From positions 704,038-736,037 of the forward strand of contig NZ_AP026695.1 of assembly GCF_025998175.1 (NCBI RefSeq): a stretch of DNA of 32,000 bases, written 5' to 3'. Under the pieces are notes generated by a model. That model was given only the letters and a program-made list of their open reading frames with translations. It made no database searches and had not been told where the DNA came from. This document shows, piece after piece, positions 3,811-27,572 of the stretch. Position 1 is the first letter of the stretch; each line of letters starts with the position of its first letter. Made by a program: the position numbers and the translations under genes. The DNA comes from Nitrosopumilus zosterae (GTDB taxonomy: Archaea > Thermoproteota > Nitrososphaeria > Nitrososphaerales > Nitrosopumilaceae).

Positions 3811-4260
3811 TCTAGGTGGTTCTTTCTTTATTCTGTAAATGTTTCTTTTTGAAATAACAATGGTCTCTCCTTCTTGATTGGTTCCTTCATAATCAATTCC
3901 AATCTTTCCATATTCTTCATCAATGTCATCTTTTTGTGAGATTGTGAATTTTAATTTCAAAACTTGATCAGTGTACAATGTCTTTAGAAATCTTGTGTTT
4001 CTGTTTTCCCATCCTGGATCCCCATCTGTTCCAACAAAAATAATGTGATTCCCATAAATCTGACTCAATCTTGTAAATTCTCCTTCCATTCTGGATAGAA
4101 TTGCCCTTCCAGAAACAATCTTTTCTTTTTCTTTTTGTCCATCTTCTAGGAATGCATTTCTAACTCTTGAAAAATTCAAATATTCTTCTAATTCTTTGTT
4201 TGAAATACTACACGTGGAATAAAACGAGTCTCCTACTTTGAATTCTGAAAATTTTTTCAT
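3808..4260 (-). CDS. hypothetical protein, possible hotdog-fold (MaoC-like) protein
   Basis: The N-terminus FSEFKVGDSFYSTCSISNKELEEYLNFSRVRNAFLED resembles the MaoC/hotdog N-terminal pattern but lacks the usual NP[IL]H. The start lies 2 nt after the stop of the upstream SDR gene. Confidence 0.55.
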   Translation of the reverse strand: MKKFSEFKVGDSFYSTCSISNKELEEYLNFSRVRNAFLEDGQKEKEKIVSGRAILSRMEGEFTRLSQIYGNHIIFVGTDGDPGWENRNTRFLKTLYTDQVLKLKFTISQKDDIDEEYGKIGIDYEGTNQEGETIVISKRNIYRIKKEPPR

Positions 4261-4262
4261 TC

Positions 4263-6032
4263 TTATCTTGTTTCATCAACACAGAAAACAATTTCTGCTG
4301 ATGATAAAGCATTATCAGTGACTAGAAAATTAAATGCATCTGCAATTCTTTGGTTGTTTGGCTCTGTACCTGTCACTGAACCTGGAAAAATTGTAAACAT
4401 TCTGATTTTTGAATTTAGAACGTCACTAAGTTCTTGGTTAACTGTGGTTGTAAATGGTCTTAACGCTCCTCTGAAAACCTCTACTTGTGCTCTTTGTATT
4501 CCTGTTACTTTCTTTCCAACTGGCAAATCTGGCCCAATTATCATGATTGCTCCTTTGGCATCTTTGTAAAGACGAGGATCATTAGCTCCTCCTGGAACAA
4601 ATTGTTCAAGTGCTCTTTGTGCAACTGTTGCTGGAGTTGAAATGAATTTTTCAGTTAAAGCCTCCCATTCTGCTCTGGATACTTCTGTTAATTTTGGTAT
4701 GTCTGGTAGTTTTCCAGTTACGTGAATAACTCCTAAAATATCCCCGATGTTTGTTTTTGCTGTGTTTAACCACCTTGCGACTTCATCGGGATTTTTGATG
4801 TCCACTATATGGGAGTGGAATTTGCTGCTGATGTATTCTTGTAATTCTGAGGGTGTGTCTTGAGAAATAAAGCATGCTACTTTTCCACCATTTTTCTCTA
4901 CATGTTGTGCTAAAAATTCAATTCTTTCGGCATCTGCTTTGTCTGTTGCATCAATTGTAAACACGACTGCTTTTCCGGTAAAGTCTGGTTGATGTACACC
5001 TGGTGCGGTAGTCCCTATGTGTGGTTTAACTGGATAAAATACTCTGTCTCCAGGAATTACTTTTCCATTGATTATTTTTGCAATTTCATCGTCGCATAGA
5101 TTGAGAACTGTTTCAGCAACTTGTCCTTGTGAAAGAAATTCTCTGTTTGCAATCATGTGAGATGTGTTGTTTTGAACCTTTTCTGCAATGGTTTGAATTT
5201 TGTTTAGTAGATTGGTAAATGTTTCAGTTAATTTAGACACATCTTTGCCGTTTGCAAGTTTGGTTGCAGCATCAGTAATTCCTTTTTTAATTACACTTTC
5301 ATCTTCTCCTAATAATGGGAGCAATTCTCTGTTTGCTTCATCAACTTGCACTGGGGATAAATCTTCAAATCCACTTACACGCATAAACTCTGCTGCGGCT
5401 TTTGGGTAAACTGTTTTGTAAATTCTATCTGAATGCACTGGACCTGGATTTGTAGCGATGGATATGATTCCTTTATCTGTCAATTCCCATGACATTAATT
5501 CTGCTAATCTATTTTTTGCTCCTTGGGATGCAGTATATGGACTTCTGAATCTATAAGGTCTCTGTTCTAGCGGTTTTTCTTCTGTAAAGAATGTGGATAT
5601 TGTAATGATTTTTCCACCTTCTTTCATTACTTTTAGAGCCTGAACAGACCCCCAGAACGTACCTGTGAGATGAATTCCTATTGTACTTTTAAATTCATCA
5701 AGTGGGGCATTTGGAAAACACGTTACTGGTCCTGAGACTCCTGCATTGTTAATTATGTAATCTATAGTGACATTATTCTTTTTTAGTTCGTCAAACATGT
5801 TGTTCATTGCTGTCTCATCTGCAACATCAACTCCTGCAAAAATTCTAACTGATGCGTTTATTCCCTGAGGGATTCTTCCTTCAAGTTCCTTTGCTGCTTC
5901 TTCTAAGGGTTCTTTTCTTCTTCCAAGAATAATCACACTAGCTCCTTCTTCTATGAATTTTGTAGCTATAGCTTTGCCTATTCCTGTTCCGCTTCCTGTA
6001 ACAAGGGCAATTTTATTTTGGAATTTTGGCAT
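4263..6032 (-). CDS. two-domain short-chain dehydrogenase/reductase, malonyl-CoA-reductase-like (589 aa)
   Basis: N-terminal classical SDR: KIALVTGSGTGIGKA, IINNAGV, PYTASQGAKNRL, NPGPVHSDRIYKTVY. The C-terminal half (KAVVFTIDATD...) is Rossmann-like but has no Gly-rich loop. See finding. Confidence 0.85.
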   Translation of the reverse strand: MPKFQNKIALVTGSGTGIGKAIATKFIEEGASVIILGRRKEPLEEAAKELEGRIPQGINASVRIFAGVDVADETAMNNMFDELKKNNVTIDYIINNAGVSGPVTCFPNAPLDEFKSTIGIHLTGTFWGSVQALKVMKEGGKIITISTFFTEEKPLEQRPYRFRSPYTASQGAKNRLAELMSWELTDKGIISIATNPGPVHSDRIYKTVYPKAAAEFMRVSGFEDLSPVQVDEANRELLPLLGEDESVIKKGITDAATKLANGKDVSKLTETFTNLLNKIQTIAEKVQNNTSHMIANREFLSQGQVAETVLNLCDDEIAKIINGKVIPGDRVFYPVKPHIGTTAPGVHQPDFTGKAVVFTIDATDKADAERIEFLAQHVEKNGGKVACFISQDTPSELQEYISSKFHSHIVDIKNPDEVARWLNTAKTNIGDILGVIHVTGKLPDIPKLTEVSRAEWEALTEKFISTPATVAQRALEQFVPGGANDPRLYKDAKGAIMIIGPDLPVGKKVTGIQRAQVEVFRGALRPFTTTVNQELSDVLNSKIRMFTIFPGSVTGTEPNNQRIADAFNFLVTDNALSSAEIVFCVDETR

Positions 6033-11638: not shown

Positions 11639-12937
11639 ATGGCAGATAAACCACACTTGAACCTGATTGTTACAGGACATATTGATAATGGAAAATCAAC
11701 TACTATGGGTCATTTTTTGATGGATCTTGGGGTTGTAGATGAAAGAACTATTGCAGCTCACGGTGCAGAATCAGAAAAGACCGGAAAAGGTGATACTTTC
11801 AAGTATGCTTGGGTTATGGATAACATTAAAGATGAAAGAGAGAGAGGTATTACAATCGATCTAGCTTTCCAAAAATTTGAGTCACCAAAGTACTTCTTTA
11901 CTTTGATTGACGCTCCTGGTCACAGGGACTTTATTAAAAACATGATTACTGGTGCTTCTGAAGCAGATGCAGCCATTTTAGTACTTTCAGCAAAAGAAGG
12001 CGAAACTGATACTGCAATTGCAGCTGGTGGACAAGCAAGAGAACACGCATTCTTGCTTAAGACACTTGGTGTAAGCCAACTAATTGTTGCAATCAACAAA
12101 ATGGATGCAGTAGAATACAAAGAAGACGCTTTTAATGCAGCCAAAGAGAAAGGTGAAAAATTAGTAAGATCTGTAGGTTACAAACTAGAGAACGTACCAT
12201 TCATTCCAGTTTCTGGATGGAAAGGTGACAATCTCGTTAAAAGATCCGAGAACATGGCTTGGTATAAAGGTAAAACTTTGCTTGAAGCATTTGATGACTT
12301 TACTATTGCTGAAAAGCCAGTAGGTAAACCATTACGTGTTCCAATACAGGACGTTTACACCATTACCGGTGTAGGTACAGTCCCAGTAGGTAGAGTTGAA
12401 ACCGGTATTATGAAAGCAGGACAAAAAATTATTGTCATGCCATCTGGTGCTCAAGGTGAAATCAAATCTATTGAGACTCACCACACAGAAATGCCATCTG
12501 CAGAAGCAGGTGACAACATTGGTTTCAACCTTAGAGGTATTGAAAAGAAAGATATCAAGAGAGGCGATGTACTTGGAACTCCTGATGCACCACCAATGGT
12601 TGCAAAAGAATTCAAGGCACAAATTATCGTTATTCACCACCCAACAGCAATTGCTCCTGGTTATACGCCAGTAATGCATGCACACACAGCACAAGTAGCA
12701 GCAACAGTTACTGAGTTCCTCCAAAAGATCAACCCAGCATCTGGCGCAGTTGAAGAAGAAAATCCAAAATTCCTCAAAGTTGGTGACTCTGCAATTGTTA
12801 AAATCAGACCGGTGAGACCAACTTGTATTGAAACATTCCAAGAATTCCCTGAAATGGGTAGATTCGCACTTAGAGACATGGGTGCAACTATCGCAGCAGG
12901 AATTGTAAAGGAAATTACCGAAGAGTACAAACCATAG
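11639..12937 (+). CDS. tuf: translation elongation factor EF-1 alpha
   Basis: GHIDNGKST, DAPGHRDF and NKMD GTPase motifs; full-length aEF-1alpha. Confidence 0.97.
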   Translation: MADKPHLNLIVTGHIDNGKSTTMGHFLMDLGVVDERTIAAHGAESEKTGKGDTFKYAWVMDNIKDERERGITIDLAFQKFESPKYFFTLIDAPGHRDFIKNMITGASEADAAILVLSAKEGETDTAIAAGGQAREHAFLLKTLGVSQLIVAINKMDAVEYKEDAFNAAKEKGEKLVRSVGYKLENVPFIPVSGWKGDNLVKRSENMAWYKGKTLLEAFDDFTIAEKPVGKPLRVPIQDVYTITGVGTVPVGRVETGIMKAGQKIIVMPSGAQGEIKSIETHHTEMPSAEAGDNIGFNLRGIEKKDIKRGDVLGTPDAPPMVAKEFKAQIIVIHHPTAIAPGYTPVMHAHTAQVAATVTEFLQKINPASGAVEEENPKFLKVGDSAIVKIRPVRPTCIETFQEFPEMGRFALRDMGATIAAGIVKEITEEYKP

Positions 12938-12948
12938 GCGGATCTTTT

Positions 12949-13257
12949 ATGACTCAAACCGCCCGTGTTAAACTCACTTCAACCAGTCTGCCAAAATTAG
13001 ATGGCGTCTGCGGTGAAATCATGGGTATTGGTAAAAAGACAGGCGTTAAGGTAAAAGGTCCAACACCACTTCCTGTAAAAAGATTGCATGTGGCAACTAG
13101 AAAATCTCCTTGCGGTAGCGGAACAGAAACTTATGAAAAATGGGAGATGAAAATGCATCGAAGAATTATCAATATCAACGCTGATGATAAAGCTATCCGA
13201 CAACTAATGAGGCTAAAGATCCCTGACGATGTTTACATTGAATTGTCCTTGACATAA
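12949..13257 (+). CDS. rps10: 30S ribosomal protein S10
   Basis: ARVKLTSTS...GPTPLPVKRLHVATRKSPCG...YEKWEMKMHRRIINI is the canonical S10 sequence. The tuf-rps10 arrangement is conserved. Confidence 0.95.
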   Translation: MTQTARVKLTSTSLPKLDGVCGEIMGIGKKTGVKVKGPTPLPVKRLHVATRKSPCGSGTETYEKWEMKMHRRIININADDKAIRQLMRLKIPDDVYIELSLT

Positions 13258-13286
13258 TCTGGTAGCCTTAAATTATAGAAATTTTG

Positions 13287-13493
13287 ATGATAAACATGGT
13301 TGAAAATTTTGATGATGATGAAATTGAGGAAACTCCTGTTGAAACATTTGATGTAAACTATTCTTGTCTGCGATGCGGAACCATAGTTTCAAACACTGAA
13401 CTATCAAGATTGCCTGAAATCAAATGTATCTGTGGATTTCGAGTATTTACCAAAGTAAGACCACCAGTAGTTAAAACAGTTAAAGCAATTTAA
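13287..13493 (+). CDS. rpoP: DNA-directed RNA polymerase subunit P (Rpo12/RpoP) with acidic N-terminal extension
   Basis: Zinc ribbon YSCLRCGTIV...IKCICGFRVFTKVRPP matches the RpoP/RPABC4 pattern. TTG at 13284 or ATG at 13296 are alternative starts. Confidence 0.75.
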   Translation: MINMVENFDDDEIEETPVETFDVNYSCLRCGTIVSNTELSRLPEIKCICGFRVFTKVRPPVVKTVKAI

Positions 13494-13494
13494 T

Positions 13495-13692
13495 TTATCT
13501 GTCTTTTTTGTAGCTGTGCTCTCTTTGTAAATGGGTTCTCATATCTTCCATGTTTGAGAAAAATTTGTTACACTCTTTACAATCATACTGCAAATCTTTG
13601 CCGTGAACAATCTGTTTGTGGTTCATTAACTCTTCTTCTTTTGAGAATTTTTTATCGCACAAATCACATTTTGTTTTTTTAAAAAATCCCAC
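13495..13692 (-). CDS. small protein with two tandem classical C2H2 zinc fingers (65 aa)
   Basis: CDLCDKKFSKEEELMNHKQIVH and CKECNKFFSNMEDMRTHLQREH both fit C-x2-C-x3-F-x5-[LM]-x2-H-x4-H. The 7-residue linker has a conserved Tyr. GTG start, 2 nt after the upstream stop. Confidence 0.8.
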   Translation of the reverse strand: MGFFKKTKCDLCDKKFSKEEELMNHKQIVHGKDLQYDCKECNKFFSNMEDMRTHLQREHSYKKDR

Positions 13693-13694
13693 GT

Positions 13695-14105
13695 TTATCC
13701 CAACTCTGATTTCTTTTCATCCCAACATCTTCTGCATAACTGTCCTTCAATCTTCCAATGTCCCTTTGGATTGTATCTGATTAAACCCATCTTTCCGCCA
13801 CATAATGAGCAAAAGTTTTTCTTTTTACCGTGACTTTCCTCTTTGTTGTCAAAACATTTCTTGCATAACAAACCCTCCATGTCCCATTGCCATCTTGGTT
13901 CCCACAAGTCTGTAATTTTCTGCGTCTCTCCGCATTCTACACATGGTTGTCTGACCTTGCCTTCATAGTATTCCTTTGATTTTTCAAAATGACAATCACC
14001 GCACAGCACCCCTTTGATGTTCCACTCTCTTTTCGGTTTGTGTTTGTGTGACAACTCTTTGTTGCAAATTGCACAGTATGATGGTTTTTTACTAAAAAAT
14101 CCCAT
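13695..14105 (-). CDS. triple zinc-ribbon repeat protein (137 aa)
   Basis: Three copies of C-x2-C...W-x-[IM]-[KE]-G-x-L-C-x2-C (YCAICNKE..WNIKGVLCGDC, PCVECGET..WDMEGLLCKKC, FCSLCGGK..WKIEGQLCRRC). Start taken at the internal ATG 14105 (MGFFSKKPS). The track extension to 14231 is low-complexity and overlaps a better small ORF in another frame. Confidence 0.8.
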   Translation of the reverse strand: MGFFSKKPSYCAICNKELSHKHKPKREWNIKGVLCGDCHFEKSKEYYEGKVRQPCVECGETQKITDLWEPRWQWDMEGLLCKKCFDNKEESHGKKKNFCSLCGGKMGLIRYNPKGHWKIEGQLCRRCWDEKKSELG

Positions 14106-14130
14106 TTTGATCCTTCTGATATGACTTAAT

Positions 14131-14139
14131 CTATAAATG
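14131..14139 (-). promoter_or_regulatory. TATA-like box for the triple zinc-ribbon gene
   Basis: The minus strand reads catttatag about 26-34 nt upstream of ATG 14105. That spacing fits an archaeal leaderless or short-leader promoter. Confidence 0.35.
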
Positions 14140-14169
14140 TAAACAAAATAAAAATAACAAAAAAATTGT

Positions 14170-14292
14170 TTATTGGCTAAGGATTTTCTCAAGAGCTTGA
14201 CTTGCATTAAGCATGCCGTTTCTCTTGGCAAATTCTTCGATCATTTTGTACTGTTTTTCTGTAAAACATACTGGCATTGAACGTCTTTCCAT
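14170..14292 (-). CDS. small ribbon-helix-helix (CopG-like) protein, 40 aa; below the ORF-track size cut-off
   Basis: My translation is MERRSMPVCFTEKQYKMIEEFAKRNGMLNASQALEKILSQ. It has a beta-strand then helix-turn-helix layout typical of RHH. An A/T-rich TATA-like stretch lies about 28 nt upstream. Confidence 0.5.
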   Translation of the reverse strand: MERRSMPVCFTEKQYKMIEEFAKRNGMLNASQALEKILSQ

Positions 14293-14367
14293 AAAGTGAT
14301 GTTGAATTTTTTACTAATATCTTTTTCTCTCGGAAAGGTATTTCAAACCATTTTTTCTATTCTGGCT

Positions 14368-14877
14368 GTGGTCAAGAAAAGGCAGATCTTAGTAATAGGA
14401 CACAATACAAGTGGGTGCACTCCGGAACATGAAAAAATTGCATATGATGTGGGAATGGAGGTTGCAAAATCCGGCTCTGTGTTGATTTGTGGAGGATTAG
14501 GCGGGGTGATGACTGCGGCAGCTCATGGCGCTAAGGATGGCAATGGTTTAACAGTTGGCATCATTCCTCAAAATGATCCTGCCATGGCCAATGAATTCTG
14601 TGATGTGGTCATTCCAACTGGAATGGGGCTTGCTCGTGATTTCCTAAATGCACTGTCTGCTGATGGCGTAATAATTATTGGAGGGGGTTCTGGAACTCTG
14701 TCTGAAACTACTGCTGCATATATGTACAAAAAACCAATGGTTGCAATTAGAAATTTGGGCGGTTCAGTTGAGAAGTTCATTGATGGTTTTATTGATCAAA
14801 GAGAGAATGTCAAGATAGTTGGCGTTGATACCCCCAAGGAAGCAGTAGAGAAAATTCTGGAGCTAATTGCTGCATAG
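14368..14877 (+). CDS. TIGR00725 / LOG-like (Rossmann, 'lysine decarboxylase-like') family protein
   Basis: ILVIGHNTSG...GSVLICGGLGGVMTAAAHGAKDGNGLTVGIIP...IIIGGGSGTLSE is the LOG/TIGR00725 pattern. I prefer GTG 14368 as the start. The track start at 14296 adds a hydrophobic 24-aa extension that would overlap the divergent RHH promoter. Confidence 0.8.
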   Translation: MVKKRQILVIGHNTSGCTPEHEKIAYDVGMEVAKSGSVLICGGLGGVMTAAAHGAKDGNGLTVGIIPQNDPAMANEFCDVVIPTGMGLARDFLNALSADGVIIIGGGSGTLSETTAAYMYKKPMVAIRNLGGSVEKFIDGFIDQRENVKIVGVDTPKEAVEKILELIAA

Positions 14878-15785: not shown

Positions 15786-16686
15786 TATTTTTTCACCAAA
15801 ATCCTGGTGTCTTGCCAAGTGTTATGATTTAGACGCAACTGTATCACGAAATACTCAGTGTTAATTCGTGTAATTAAGGAATAAAGTAGTTGATTTCATT
15901 TAGCCCAAAGTCAATTGCAGATGATCATTCGTTTGAGAATCCAATGTATGGATTCACGATAACTCGACTAATTGCCTAGGGGGCAGATCCGCCTTTGTGC
16001 AATTTTTAGATTCATAAGAAATTACAATAACAATTTTTAACGAACATTTGGATTTCATGCTGATTTCACTATACATGTAGGAATCATTTTGAGAACATAA
16101 ATAAAAAAGAAAAAAGATTACACTAGAAATAAATTATTTAGTTTTATCTTTTTCAGATTTCTTTGCTTCTTTTTTTGCTTTGTTTGAGGTTTTACTCATG
16201 ACGTGCCATCTGGAAACAAGTAAATGAAGTAAAGCATAATTGACTTTATTCAGAACTAGGACAACCAAATTAATCTTGAATTTACAAATTCTTGTTTGCA
16301 GTTGGTTGCAGGTAATACAGATTGTGATAGTAAAACTTTGAGAACAAATCATTCATCTTGTTTAAATTCAAGAATTCCAACCCACATCTACTATGAGTTA
16401 TCAATATGATGACGACAATGATGACGTAGATTACGACTCTGACTATGATGAGGATTAACCGTCCTCTCATTTTCTTTTTTTAGGATCTTAACTTTCTTGT
16501 AGTTTGGTTTTCTGATTCTCTATTCATGAGTGTGATCCTTGTTTTGCTAAAAGAGATATTCCTAGGTTTGGAGTCTTTACGGTTTCCCTAAAATCTTGGG
16601 TAACTTGCCCTGATGGTTATAGCATCTATCCTAGCAATTTACTAGATTATGGCACATTGCCTATAATTTGAGGAATAAATGTAAAA

Positions 16687-16741
16687 ATCTCCATTTATTT
16701 TTCAAAAGCCAGGCATGAATTAAATGGAGATAAATGGAGAT
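16687..16741. repeat. three copies of the 11-mer TAAATGGAGAT (one inverted, two tandem direct)
   Basis: atctccattta at 16687-16697 is the exact reverse complement of taaatggagat, which occurs at 16721-16731 and again at 16731-16741. Confidence 0.8.
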
Positions 16742-16897
16742 GAATTTTTTTAAAAAAATACGTGAAAATATGATTTTCGTACAAAATAGCATTTTCATAC
16801 AGGACAAAATTTGGAAAAAGTGTGATATTGGGAATTTAGGGAATAAACCGATTGAACATCTTACACAACTGAGAAAAATGGACATCTGTATCAAGTC

Positions 16898-17107
16898 ATG
16901 AAAGTGTTGAGGGTTAATCGGTTAAGGGCTGCCATCCTTTCTGATGCAATTGATCAGATTGGAAAATTCAAGACAGTTGAAAGGTTGGTGAATTTGAATG
17001 CGGATAGAAAGCGACTTTGGTTAGATCAGATTCAATCTGTTGAGTCTAAAACAAAAAATGATTCTATGCCTATCTTATTAAGTCATTTTTATAAAGAGAC
17101 AATTTAG
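16898..17107 (+). CDS. hypothetical protein (69 aa), uncertain
   Basis: ORF only, 16 nt upstream of the AlbA_2 gene on the same strand. Charged, helical-looking sequence. No family recognised. Confidence 0.3.
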   Translation: MKVLRVNRLRAAILSDAIDQIGKFKTVERLVNLNADRKRLWLDQIQSVESKTKNDSMPILLSHFYKETI

Positions 17108-17123
17108 TAGATGTTCATAAAGT

Positions 17124-18089
17124 ATGATCGAAATTCCTGATGATGTTGAGCAATGGACTTATGGAAAGATTGTTGATTTGGTTAATGAAGGGTATGATGA
17201 AAATGATATTTTAGAAATTAAGCAAGACGTAAATGAAGATAGTGATAGATTTGCAAGATCAGTTTGTGCTTTTGCAAATACAAATGGTGGCACAATAATT
17301 TTTGGTATAGATAATAACAGAAAAAAACCATTACATCTTAATGACAGAATTTGTGGATTAGATGATTCTGATCAATTAAAGCGAAACATAATAGATAAAA
17401 TTAAACATATTCAACCCAGCATCCCGATAAAAAATTTGATTTTTCGAAAAACTAATATCAAATTACCAAACAAACGTGTAATTGTAATTTTAAAAGTAAC
17501 TCCCTCCTCAAGAAAACCTCACGAATGGAATCATGTTTTTTTGAAGAGATTGTCTGATGGAAATGAGCCAATGGATGTTACGGAAGTTAAACAGACAATA
17601 TTGGAATCTCAAAAGAATGAGAGATTACTAACTCTTCTTAGACAAGAAGCAGGTCTATTGCGTTATTTGTTCGAAAAATCAAAAAAACTTCTAGAAGAGG
17701 ATAAAATTCGTTTAACAACAATGTTTCTTAATACGATTCCTGTCGATACTGTAAAATATTTCATGCTTAACCAGTCTTTTCTTTATCCGGTACAATCGAC
17801 ACAATCTCTGATGAGGATTCTTGAAGTTGTTGAAAAAATGGAAAGCATTTCAAAAAAACATAGTACAACAAATATACTAAATGGTGATTTAAAAAAATCA
17901 CTGGAGAATCATATTGCTCTGGGATTACAAATTTTAATCCCTCAGGGACTGAAACATCTTTCGGAATTGGAAAACCATTTGGATGTAAAACTTATTCCTA
18001 CTATTGAAACCGAGGAATATGATCCCTTGTTTGATAAATTAGAAAATCCAAATGATAATTTGAATGATCAAACATCCAACAAATCATAA
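17124..18089 (+). CDS. AlbA_2 (Schlafen-like, 'divergent AAA') domain protein with unassigned helical C-terminal half
   Basis: ILEIKQDVNEDSDRFARSVCAFANTNGGTIIFGIDNNRKKP...RVIVILKVTPSSRKPH matches the AlbA_2 core (E-x-K, CAFAN-xx-GG-x-[IL]-x-G[IV]). The C-terminal 170 aa or so could not be assigned. Confidence 0.7.
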   Translation: MIEIPDDVEQWTYGKIVDLVNEGYDENDILEIKQDVNEDSDRFARSVCAFANTNGGTIIFGIDNNRKKPLHLNDRICGLDDSDQLKRNIIDKIKHIQPSIPIKNLIFRKTNIKLPNKRVIVILKVTPSSRKPHEWNHVFLKRLSDGNEPMDVTEVKQTILESQKNERLLTLLRQEAGLLRYLFEKSKKLLEEDKIRLTTMFLNTIPVDTVKYFMLNQSFLYPVQSTQSLMRILEVVEKMESISKKHSTTNILNGDLKKSLENHIALGLQILIPQGLKHLSELENHLDVKLIPTIETEEYDPLFDKLENPNDNLNDQTSNKS

Positions 18090-22939: not shown

Positions 22940-23107
22940 ATGGGTTTGTTCAAACGTAAGAAAGACGATAAAAACAAGACAAAATGTGATGTCTGTGGAA
23001 CTGATTTGTATGATCCTGAACGATTGAAAAAACACCTGAAAAAAGCACATGGAAACGTACCTGCAAAGAAATTGGATCCGAATGCGGGTGACGGTGGAAC
23101 TTGGTAG
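22940..23107 (+). CDS. small single C2H2 zinc-finger protein, 55 aa; below the ORF-track size cut-off
   Basis: My translation is MGLFKRKKDDKNKTKCDVCGTDLYDPERLKKHLKKAHGNVPAKKLDPNAGDGGTW. It fits C-x2-C-x3-L-x5-L-x2-H-x4-H. The antisense track ORF 22922..23185 was rejected. Confidence 0.65.
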   Translation: MGLFKRKKDDKNKTKCDVCGTDLYDPERLKKHLKKAHGNVPAKKLDPNAGDGGTW

Positions 23108-27431: not shown

Positions 27432-27572
27432 TCAATAACCTTCTTCGCTTGAATCTGACTCCGCATCAATTTTCTCAAATGTCATGTCCTTTTTTTGACA
27501 GGATTCGCACTTCTCCATGATGCCAAATTCATTCCTGTATTGACCTTTCCCATCACATCTGAAACAGACCAA
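27432..27572 (-). CDS. possible 46-aa zinc-ribbon micro-protein (uncertain)
   Basis: My translation is (TTG)VCFRCDGKGQYRNEFGIMEKCESCQKKDMTFEKIDAESDSSEEGY. It has a CxxCxGxG knuckle plus a second CxxC and lies 34 nt upstream of the TPR gene on the same strand. The only full-length start is TTG. Confidence 0.3.
   Translation of the reverse strand: MVCFRCDGKGQYRNEFGIMEKCESCQKKDMTFEKIDAESDSSEEGY

Follow-up and report, generated by a model that had tools for sequence, protein, structure and literature searches.

Two lineage-wide small-gene units beside rpoP in Nitrosopumilus zosterae: a candidate ribbon-helix-helix regulator and a coupled pair of zinc-finger genes

Whether three very small genes, lying in a row beside rpoP, the gene for RNA polymerase subunit P, form a single regulatory module or are simply neighbours is the question raised by a stretch of the chromosome of the ammonia-oxidising archaeon Nitrosopumilus zosterae (assembly GCF_025998175.1, contig NZ_AP026695.1, positions 704,038-736,037 of the forward strand). 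The whole stretch of 32,000 nucleotides (nt) is called the window in the following, and positions are counted from its first letter. On the minus strand it carries a 40-residue open reading frame (ORF; 14170..14292, ATG start) with a product resembling ribbon-helix-helix (RHH) proteins (MERRSMPVCFTEKQYKMIEEFAKRNGMLNASQALEKILSQ), a 136-residue gene (13695..14105, ATG start) for a protein of three tandem four-cysteine (Cys4) zinc modules, and a 65-residue gene (13495..13692, GTG start) for a protein with two classical C2H2 fingers. On balance, we consider it probable that they are two lineage-wide units, namely a monocistronic RHH-like regulator and a coupled two-protein zinc-finger factor that would bind nucleic acid, with functions that we infer.

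Gene reality, conservation and transcription units

All three minus-strand ORFs were found in the row in which the first-pass annotation, made from the sequence alone, had placed them, and all three are real genes under purifying selection. In tblastn searches of 80 species-representative Nitrosopumilus/Nitrosarchaeum genomes, the 136- and the 65-residue genes are both present in 80/80 and the 40-residue gene in 78/80, and all three also occur in Nitrososphaera; their homologues (244 for the 136-residue, 247 for the 40-residue and 298 for the 65-residue protein), where named, belong without exception to Nitrosopumilus, Nitrosarchaeum, Cenarchaeum, Nitrosopumilaceae or Nitrososphaera. The pairwise ratio of nonsynonymous to synonymous differences (pN/pS) is 0.14 for the 40-residue, 0.12 for the 136-residue and 0.11 for the 65-residue gene, with 0.17 for rpoP and 0.03 for the gene of ribosomal protein S10, and the isoelectric point is 8.7-9.0 for the three proteins alike. 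The smallest ORF, the conservation of which had been named as a test of its reality, is intact, with an ATG start and 39-41 codons, in 76 of 78 loci; it varies mainly at third codon positions, and the identity of its product is 76-100% across the 78 of 80 loci that have it. The three genes are already called in public genomes, under names such as ‘multiple Zn finger protein’, ‘C2H2-type zinc finger protein’ and ‘hypothetical protein’, the last being the one carried by the homologues of the 40-residue protein, the gene of which some gene callers shorten to 35 residues (start at Met6) or lengthen to 58. In the literature on C2H2, RHH or small zinc-finger proteins of ammonia-oxidising archaea no characterisation was found.

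Two details of the gene models had to be corrected. The middle protein has 136 residues and not 137, the stop codon having been counted in the earlier figure. Furthermore, a 178-residue ORF, which overlaps the 3' end of the 40-residue gene in a different frame, had been held to read this region in the wrong frame; it is the frame of the 136-residue gene, extended upstream to a TTG, and represents an over-extended version of that gene because 63/80 relatives have an in-frame stop within 60 nt 5' of its ATG.

To judge from their spacing, the 136- and 65-residue genes are a translationally coupled bicistronic operon, of which they are the first and the second gene, respectively. The stop codon of the former and the GTG of the latter are separated by 2 nt in the window, start codon and gap being as originally described, and by -1 to 5 nt in 81/81 loci; the downstream gene begins with GTG in 50, TTG in 19 and ATG in 10 loci, at a conserved MGFF position, and the upstream gene with ATG in 80/81. 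The spacer between the 40- and the 136-residue genes measures 49-71 nt in 59/79 loci, where it is strongly conserved (TAA-AC..TTTTTTGTTATTTTTATTTTGTTTACATTTATAGAATA, with the conserved block GTTTACATTTATAGAATA) and where a TATA-like hexamer is found at -30 to -36 in 57/59 cases. In the window, this hexamer takes the form of a TTTATA box (14132..14137, minus strand), 27-32 nt 5' of the ATG of the 136-residue gene, which would be the promoter element of the zinc-finger operon. Directly 3' of the stop of the 40-residue gene there is an oligo-T tract (14141..14165, minus strand), and a run of at least five T lies within 37 nt of this stop in 56 of the 59 short spacers. Such a tract is the usual archaeal termination signal, and the present one is probably the terminator of the 40-residue gene. 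In the other 20 of the 79 loci the spacer extends to 107-2459 nt and holds unrelated ORFs, which in one locus (L078) we take, from reading their sequences, to be transposase-like. Because the T tract and the TTTATA box are conserved, and insertions are tolerated in the spacer, the locus is read as two transcription units, the 40-residue gene alone and the operon of the 136- and 65-residue genes; the three genes are neighbours, and not one three-gene unit.

The gene order was also followed through nearer and more distant relatives. The 136-residue gene, the C2H2 gene, rpoP and the S10 gene are adjacent in 78-80 of 80 loci, rpoP (69 residues; 13284..13493, plus strand; Pfam Zn_ribbon_RPAB4 E=9e-4, below cut-off) being adjacent and convergent in 79/80 Nitrosopumilus loci. 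Synteny, which the first-pass annotation had proposed to check for all three genes, therefore holds for the zinc-finger pair with rpoP and S10, but the 40-residue gene is separated from them in about a quarter of the genomes. Similarly, the trio had been said to come directly after rpoP, of which the adjacency stands; however, rpoP is on the plus strand and hence convergent, its stop lying 1 nt from that of the 65-residue gene. A metagenome scan with distant members of the 136-residue family yielded 80 contigs, mostly from soil. The C2H2 gene again comes immediately after the triple-module gene in 38 of these contigs, and 16 of them, Nitrososphaera-like loci, have rpoP in convergent orientation next to the pair; the remaining 42 contigs carry triple-module paralogues in unrelated contexts. 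In locus L118, the proteins of which, by exact-sequence look-up, fall in clusters with NCBI members named Nitrososphaera sp., the order is 40-residue gene, an opposite-strand ORF, a 145-residue triple-module gene, a 67-residue C2H2 gene and rpoP, the last overlapping the C2H2 gene by 4 nt (4624-4627); the opposite-strand ORF is presumably P-II-like, from a reading of its sequence. Between the Nitrosopumilus window and Nitrososphaera-like loci the 40-residue protein is 54-67% identical. From these gene orders, the pair and its position beside rpoP appear to be older than the divergence of the Nitrosopumilus-type from the Nitrososphaera-type ammonia oxidisers, and the 40-residue gene, on the same comparison, is only loosely linked to the pair.

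These gene orders bear on the first alternative, namely that the three genes are one module, in which the RHH protein would be the dedicated repressor of the zinc-finger operon, as in an antitoxin-like or CopG-like autoregulated cassette. The co-directional arrangement with a 49-71 nt spacer in 59/79 Nitrosopumilus-type loci and the five Nitrososphaera-like metagenome loci with a 40-residue gene in the same orientation 0.6-2.4 kb upstream of the pair would suit such a cassette, as would the common control of neighbouring genes by RHH proteins. Against it stand a separate and conserved promoter and terminator, unrelated genes and transposase-like ORFs inserted between the putative repressor and its target, the opposite-strand P-II-like gene intervening in L118, and several long soil loci in which the pair has no nearby 40-residue gene or has it on the other strand; furthermore, the conserved promoter element of the 40-residue gene (see below) does not recur at the operon promoter. 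A single module is, thus, unlikely. The single co-directional trio of the earlier description is not supported, given a gene with its own conserved promoter and terminator that is separated from the others in 20/79 loci; among the explanations then offered, three independent small regulators comes closest, with the qualification that one gene stands alone and the other two are coupled.

Some further observations concern the operon and its relatives. With a distance of 1 nt between the rpoP and C2H2 stops (and the 4-nt overlap in L118), the 3' ends of the two genes must overlap in antisense. The last C2H2 codons (AAAAAAGAC) read as GTCTTTTTT on the rpoP strand, a possible rpoP terminator (13484-13510), and synonymous entropy falls to 0.41 in the last five codons of the C2H2 gene and to 0.44 in the last four of the 136-residue gene. 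Among the soil paralogues of the triple-module protein, those without a following C2H2 gene (L081-L160; for example L119, L130 and L148, about 3980-4420) include some located upstream of an ORF of about 250 residues, which, to judge from its sequence, may encode an exported protein of thioredoxin/DsbA-like type.

The 40-residue gene and its product

The near-invariant core of the 40-residue protein is RSMPVCFTEKQYKMIEEFAKRNGMLNASQALEKIL, with Pro7 and Cys9 invariant in the presumed strand. Its AlphaFold (AF2) model, with a predicted local distance difference test (pLDDT) score of 83.4, is extended over residues 1-11 and helical over residues 12-24 and 30-39, which as a monomer agrees with the layout of an RHH unit (about 40-50 residues, beta-alpha-alpha), the intermolecular sheet being beyond a monomer model. 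When this model is compared with the Protein Data Bank (PDB) by Foldseek, the top 50 matches are mostly RHH proteins (MazE-mt1, MazE9, NikR, VapB, CopG, ParD, CdbA, AtaR, TacA, Arc and ORF56), with query-based TM-scores (TMq) of 0.54-0.72, mostly 0.6-0.7, and with E-values all above 1 because the query has 40 residues. In an hhalign comparison with six RHH sequences (CopG, Arc, Mnt, NikR, ORF56 and MetJ), strand, helix A and the G-x-x-N/S turn fall in register, at P=1e-3 and a probability of 20%. The window protein itself has no match in Pfam or NCBIfam; among 40 homologues scanned against Pfam, 18 match the NikA-like family PF21983, which we take to be an RHH family, with a best but sub-threshold E=0.018, and a PHROGs scan of the protein returned unnamed families only, at E>0.01. 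Its profile also matched the VapW antitoxin over a stretch of 15 residues (E=0.0037), which was not taken further, as the VapW paper makes no mention of RHH or DNA binding. The best reading is, thus, that the product is probably an RHH protein, on the strength of fold and register and not of a significant family match; the model layout, the Foldseek list, the hhalign register and the NikA-like matches all speak for the RHH likeness originally noticed.

Upstream of the gene, an element at 14314..14329 (minus strand; GAGAAAAAGATATTAG) combines a stretch resembling the B recognition element (BRE) with a TATA-like ATATTA, 28 nt 5' of the ATG. The consensus of the block, TTCCAAGAGAAAAGGATATTAG, has 60-99% column identity over 77 loci and ends about 23 nt before the ATG, and Nitrososphaera orthologues have an equivalent AGAAAGAGTTATAATCTTGC element upstream. 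Position and sequence point to a promoter role, and, judging from the distance between TATA and ATG, the mRNA is probably leaderless or near-leaderless. A bacterial promoter and terminator scan was uninformative, the host being an archaeon.

The coding sequence shows a peculiarity of its own. Synonymous sites are unusually conserved, with a synonymous difference (pS) of 0.37 against 0.62-0.72 in neighbouring genes, and synonymous-codon entropy is 0.34-0.40 in the first 24 codons compared with 0.83 in the remainder; over codons 2-24 (14221-14289) the non-preferred codons CGT, TAC, ATC, GCC and AAG are fixed. This pattern suggests an element acting at the DNA or RNA level within the coding sequence. 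A structured RNA or small RNA overlapping the gene was considered and rejected, with a fold z-score of -0.4 and no Rfam or tRNA match in the window. In addition, a direct repeat with the core CCAAGAGAAA on the gene strand is found at 14219-14231 and 14324-14336, 105 nt apart, one copy lying 41 nt 5' of the ATG and the other over codons 22-25. The two copies occur together in 48/75 loci (background, 0.16 per kb) and are not kept in Nitrosarchaeum-type loci; they could be an operator pair, or a coincidence of the BRE-like stretch with A-K-R-N codons.

The zinc-finger pair

The 65-residue protein is, from its sequence, certain to be a true tandem classical C2H2 protein. Pfam zf-C2H2 matches it at 40.6 bits (cut-off 25.2; E=2.6e-10) over two stretches, the fingers, at residues 9-30 and 38-59, both reading C-x2-C-x3-F-x5-[LM]-x2-H-x4-H, and in a PDB sequence search it aligns in register, over the linker as well as the two fingers, with ZNF568, Aart, PRDM9, Zif268 and CTCF. 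This is how the protein had been described in the first place. The exact fit to the Krueppel consensus then claimed holds for the Phe, the Leu/Met, the 7-residue linker from His to Cys and its Tyr, two residues before the next Cys; the fit is better described as being within the range of the consensus, and the linker sequence, GKDLQYD, is not TGEKP. About 100 orthologues from two orders, Nitrososphaera included, retain the ligands and the F and L/M positions, as well as the helices of finger 1 (K-F-x-K-x-E-E-L-M-x-H-x-Q) and finger 2 (F-x-G-M-E-Q/D-M-R-D/T-H-x-K/R-x-H-S-Y), and this conservation of helix surfaces argues for a single conserved binding partner. As regards nomenclature, the public name of some homologues is ‘C2H2-type zinc finger protein’; the protein also appears in several JGI records as ‘DNA-directed RNA polymerase subunit RPC12/RpoP’, as ‘HypF’ or as ‘KRAB domain-containing zinc finger protein’, and the names RpoP and HypF are wrong.

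The 136-residue protein is built, as had been recognised, of a triple repeat with four Cys per module. The module pattern is CxxC-x20-22-CxxC, with an internal [KR]-x-P-[KR]-x2-W-x-[IM]-x-G-x-L-C-x2-C; the three modules, of about 45 residues each, are mutually homologous by hhalign (probability 94-98%; P 1e-7, 8e-13 and 2e-9), and the W, K/R and P positions are invariant in each. In an alignment of 20 diverse homologues (60-88% identity), all 12 Cys are invariant, together with W28, W68-E-P-R-W-Q-W74, G-L-L-C-K-x-C-F-D and W117...G-Q-L-C-R-x-C-W-D. In the AlphaFold model (pLDDT 81.7) helices span residues 36-47, 82-97 and 125-135, so that the second CxxC of each module (C35/C38, C81/C84 and C124/C127) stands at a helix N-terminus. 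A second CxxC at the start of a helix is the treble-clef arrangement, of which the LIM, RING, IBR, FYVE and HNH classes are examples; in a zinc ribbon both knuckles come from beta-hairpins, and the helices provide no ligands. Against the PDB, Foldseek places LIM proteins first (LMO2, LMO4 and Lhx3; E 3e-3 to 3e-2), followed by RING, IBR, FYVE and archaeal 30S ribosome chains of about 57-60 residues, and against viral models (BFVD) it finds HNH and Endonuclease VII (E 3e-4 to 1e-3). A treble-clef-like nature of the modules is, thus, well supported by the model, and the four-Cys zinc ribbons of the first-pass annotation were rejected on the strength of the helices opening at each second CxxC together with the LIM, RING and HNH matches.

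Family models place the protein less easily. The cut-off of DUF4428 (PF14471), a family to which the modules had been likened, is missed with 18.4 bits against 27.8 (E=0.002); distant relatives score 17-22 bits and one homologue carries a precomputed PF14471 match, so that the relation is distant at best. A PHROGs match (phrog_888, 1.3e-4) is below cut-off, and a PDB sequence search with the 136-residue profile gave nothing significant. An exhaustive profile search of 1.84 billion clusters found 124 representatives of the family, most of those seen being from ammonia-oxidising archaea. The family occurs in three-module form, in two-module form with low-complexity N-termini, as single modules of about 60 residues and, in a few cases, as proteins of 350-450 residues; it is narrow, and no curated model covers it. 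The longest relatives (P0440, P0473, P0480 and P0446) have an N-terminal zinc module followed by GRAM-like and SHOCT domains, and the single-module ones (P0456-P0476) a conserved C-terminal tail, YPG-x-H-V-R-V. A c-type cytochrome was considered and discarded: there is a single CxxCH (C35-G-D-C38-H39), the His of which is Tyr in some homologues, the N-terminus (MGFFSKKPSYC) is basic and short, without a hydrophobic signal-like stretch, and the Cytochrome_C7/c3 matches are below cut-off, those to PDB cytochromes being artefacts of the Cys pattern.

The fold matches bear on a second alternative, in which the 136-residue protein would be a degenerate nuclease of the HNH/EndoVII type, or a uS14-like RNA binder on the ribosome or on RNA polymerase, with the C2H2 protein as partner. 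It draws on the best BFVD matches, HNH and Endonuclease VII, on the resemblance of module 1 (CxxC...HxHxP...N...LCxxCHxxK) to the HNH pattern, on weak uS14 matches, and on the neighbouring rpoP, S10 and EF-1alpha genes. An active HNH nuclease is unlikely, since the candidate His (H20, H22 and H39) are not conserved: some Nitrosopumilaceae homologues (P0072, P0084) have neither H22 nor H39, H20 and H22 are Tyr or Phe in the distant 50%-cluster representatives P0371 and P0378, and H22 is Tyr in the Nitrososphaera operon orthologue of L118. Moreover, H20, H22, N29 and H39 of module 1 are the sole candidates, modules 2 and 3 having no His there, and the protein has no match to the Pfam HNH model. 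As to uS14, the cut-offs are missed by NCBIfam PRK05766 (18.5 bits against 54; E=0.0013) and Pfam Ribosomal_S14 (14.6 against 27; 0.028); hhalign aligns modules 2 and 3 with uS14/eS29 sequences at P 5e-5 and 1e-4, with a 9-residue insertion in the modules. A uS14/eS29 identity was, therefore, rejected on the sub-cut-off scores, this 9-residue gap, the presence of three modules and a location outside the spc operon. As all these matches stay below family cut-offs and may reflect the shared treble-clef fold alone, the nuclease or ribosomal alternative is improbable.

That the two zinc proteins serve instead as a zinc store or buffer, or as a redox-sensitive zinc switch, is highly improbable; a zinc-buffering set was among the possibilities raised in the first-pass annotation. 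With 16 Cys and 4 His ligands in 201 residues, and five predicted Zn sites, the pair is rich in metal ligands; yet many non-ligand surface residues that a store would not need are invariant or conserved between orders (W68-E-P-R-W-Q-W74, the K/R-P-K motif and the finger helices), the Cys spacing is that of structural fingers, unlike metallothionein clusters, and the window has no linked metal transporter or regulator.

In the preferred account of two units, the 40-residue protein would dimerise and serve as a small transcriptional repressor, probably of its own promoter and possibly of the divergent SLOG gene described below. The 136- and 65-residue proteins would be produced in fixed proportion and act jointly, with five Zn per pair, in binding nucleic acid, the C2H2 fingers providing recognition and the triple treble-clef protein being the other subunit, which would contribute to binding or serve as an adaptor, much as LIM-only proteins do. 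Their target would probably be tied to transcription or RNA because the linkage to rpoP persists; this linkage and the uS14-like and LIM-like resemblances are to be taken as leads in that direction, and not as evidence. Several points weigh against this account. Neither the 40- nor the 136-residue protein matches a Pfam or NCBIfam model above cut-off; every Foldseek E-value for the 40-residue model exceeds 1, and the fold matches of the 136-residue model have TM-scores of just 0.2-0.3, although low values are expected of beads on a string. A repeated RHH operator was sought in the window, and only the promoter copy itself turned up. The recognition helices of the C2H2 protein are rather acidic (K/E/E/N and N/E/D/T at -1, 2, 3 and 6), so that protein or RNA binding fits as well as DNA binding. 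Finally, it is from the coupling of their genes alone that we infer a complex of the two zinc proteins, and rpoP may have stayed beside the pair simply because gene order was retained. A bolder version, which we regard as rather improbable, would make the pair a direct partner of the transcription apparatus, peculiar to ammonia-oxidising archaea (C2H2 DNA reader and LIM-like adaptor) and kept next to rpoP since before the split of Nitrosopumilales and Nitrososphaerales, with the 40-residue RHH protein as a global regulator of the kind of aCcr1 and CdrS (see below) and the constraint on its first 24 codons as its operator.

Neighbourhood, significance and known systems

The locus is set in ordinary core chromosome, including genes for tRNA-intron endonuclease, DNA ligase and fructose-bisphosphatase (FBPase), and Rfam and tRNA scans of the entire window gave zero matches. 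The genes for EF-1alpha (11639-12937) and S10 (12949-13257) precede rpoP on the plus strand. On the other side, divergent from the 40-residue gene, lies the gene of a SLOG cluster-4 family protein (14368..14877, plus strand; Pfam LDcluster4 E=2.7e-44 from ORF residue 28), the start of which is uncertain, the ORF opening at 14296 and the likely start being the GTG at 14368; an arginase-family gene comes next after it. The SLOG gene adjoins the 40-residue gene in 55/70 loci where both were found, so that this junction also tolerates insertions.

Elsewhere in the window, a 55-residue ORF (22940-23107, plus strand; MGLFKRKKDDKNKTKCDVCGTDLYDPERLKKHLKKAHG...) encodes one C2H2-like finger, which stays below the zf-C2H2 cut-off (E=0.0024), and shares an MGLF-x-KK N-terminus with both operon proteins. 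The resulting M-G-[FL]-F-x-K-K start, common to the 136-, 65- and 55-residue proteins a few residues before the first CxxC (14091-14105, 13678-13692 and 22940-22960, respectively), could serve as a peptide arm or, in the mRNA, as a 5' signal; distant two-module relatives (P0405-P0421) begin with M-K-F-x-F-K-K-K. A 46-residue ORF (27432-27572, minus strand; MVCFRCDGKGQYRNEFGIMEKCESC...) with CxxC-x16-CxxC and a weak match to DnaJ CXXCXGXG (E=0.017) is a putative gene. Positions 15819-17123, 1.3 kb, contain neither an ORF of at least 90 residues nor an RNA-family match, and are followed at once by a Schlafen/AlbA_2-domain protein (17124-18089; E=8e-19); 15819-18089 may be variable, or may once have been mobile.

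In eukaryotes, no DNA-binding module is commoner than the classical C2H2 finger, which in archaea is, to our knowledge, rare and has hardly been studied. The two-finger C2H2 gene described here belongs to the core gene set of a globally important group of archaea, in which it is under purifying selection and is always translated together with the gene of a partner whose family lacks a curated model. A pair that did bind DNA or RNA polymerase would be a eukaryote-style factor added to archaeal transcription and, with 65 and 136 residues, a tractable minimal system. The 40-residue protein would rank among the smallest RHH regulators known. Should the genes prove to encode ordinary small regulators, the value would lie in better annotation, as the 136-residue family needs a model of its own and the 40-residue gene is easily missed or shortened by gene callers.

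Among known systems, RHH repressors (CopG, Arc/Mnt, the NikR N-domain and NikA) are similar to the 40-residue protein in size (about 40-60 residues) and in layout, with a strand segment, a helix, a G-x-x-[N/S] turn and a second helix; the present protein differs in being shorter than CopG (45 residues) and in having no toxin or cell-division gene adjacent. In standing alone, in its very high conservation and in its small size, the 40-residue gene resembles those of aCcr1 of Sulfolobales and CdrS of Haloarchaea, small essential RHH regulators of other archaea (PMC9976878, PMC7617429), which may be regarded as functional analogues only.

With Krueppel/TFIIIA-type C2H2 proteins, the 65-residue protein shares the full finger pattern, twice, together with the linker length and the Tyr position; it differs from them in having two fingers only and no other domain, H-x4-H spacing, a linker other than TGEKP and acidic helices, and in being encoded in an archaeal operon. 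A 2013 study of AFV1p06, an archaeal viral protein with a single C2H2 finger, reported no homologue of that family in Thaumarchaeota (PMC3541406), and the 65-residue protein, therefore, represents a different archaeal C2H2 lineage.

The 136-residue protein has the CxxC knuckle, the loop and the helix-capping CxxC in common with treble-clef modules at large (LIM, DUF4428, uS14/eS29 and HNH/EndoVII), and its sequence also shows weak similarity, below cut-off, to DUF4428, uS14 and EndoVII. Its modules stand in tandem as in the LIM-only proteins LMO2 and LMO4, in which, however, the fingers are paired, whereas here there are three independent Cys4 modules; in comparison with uS14, each carries the extra 9-residue P-K-x-x-W-x-I-x-G insertion, and, in comparison with HNH, the catalytic residues are not conserved. 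The fold classes are known ones; the novelty lies in the triple-module family and in the constancy with which it is paired, within one operon, with a tandem C2H2 protein.

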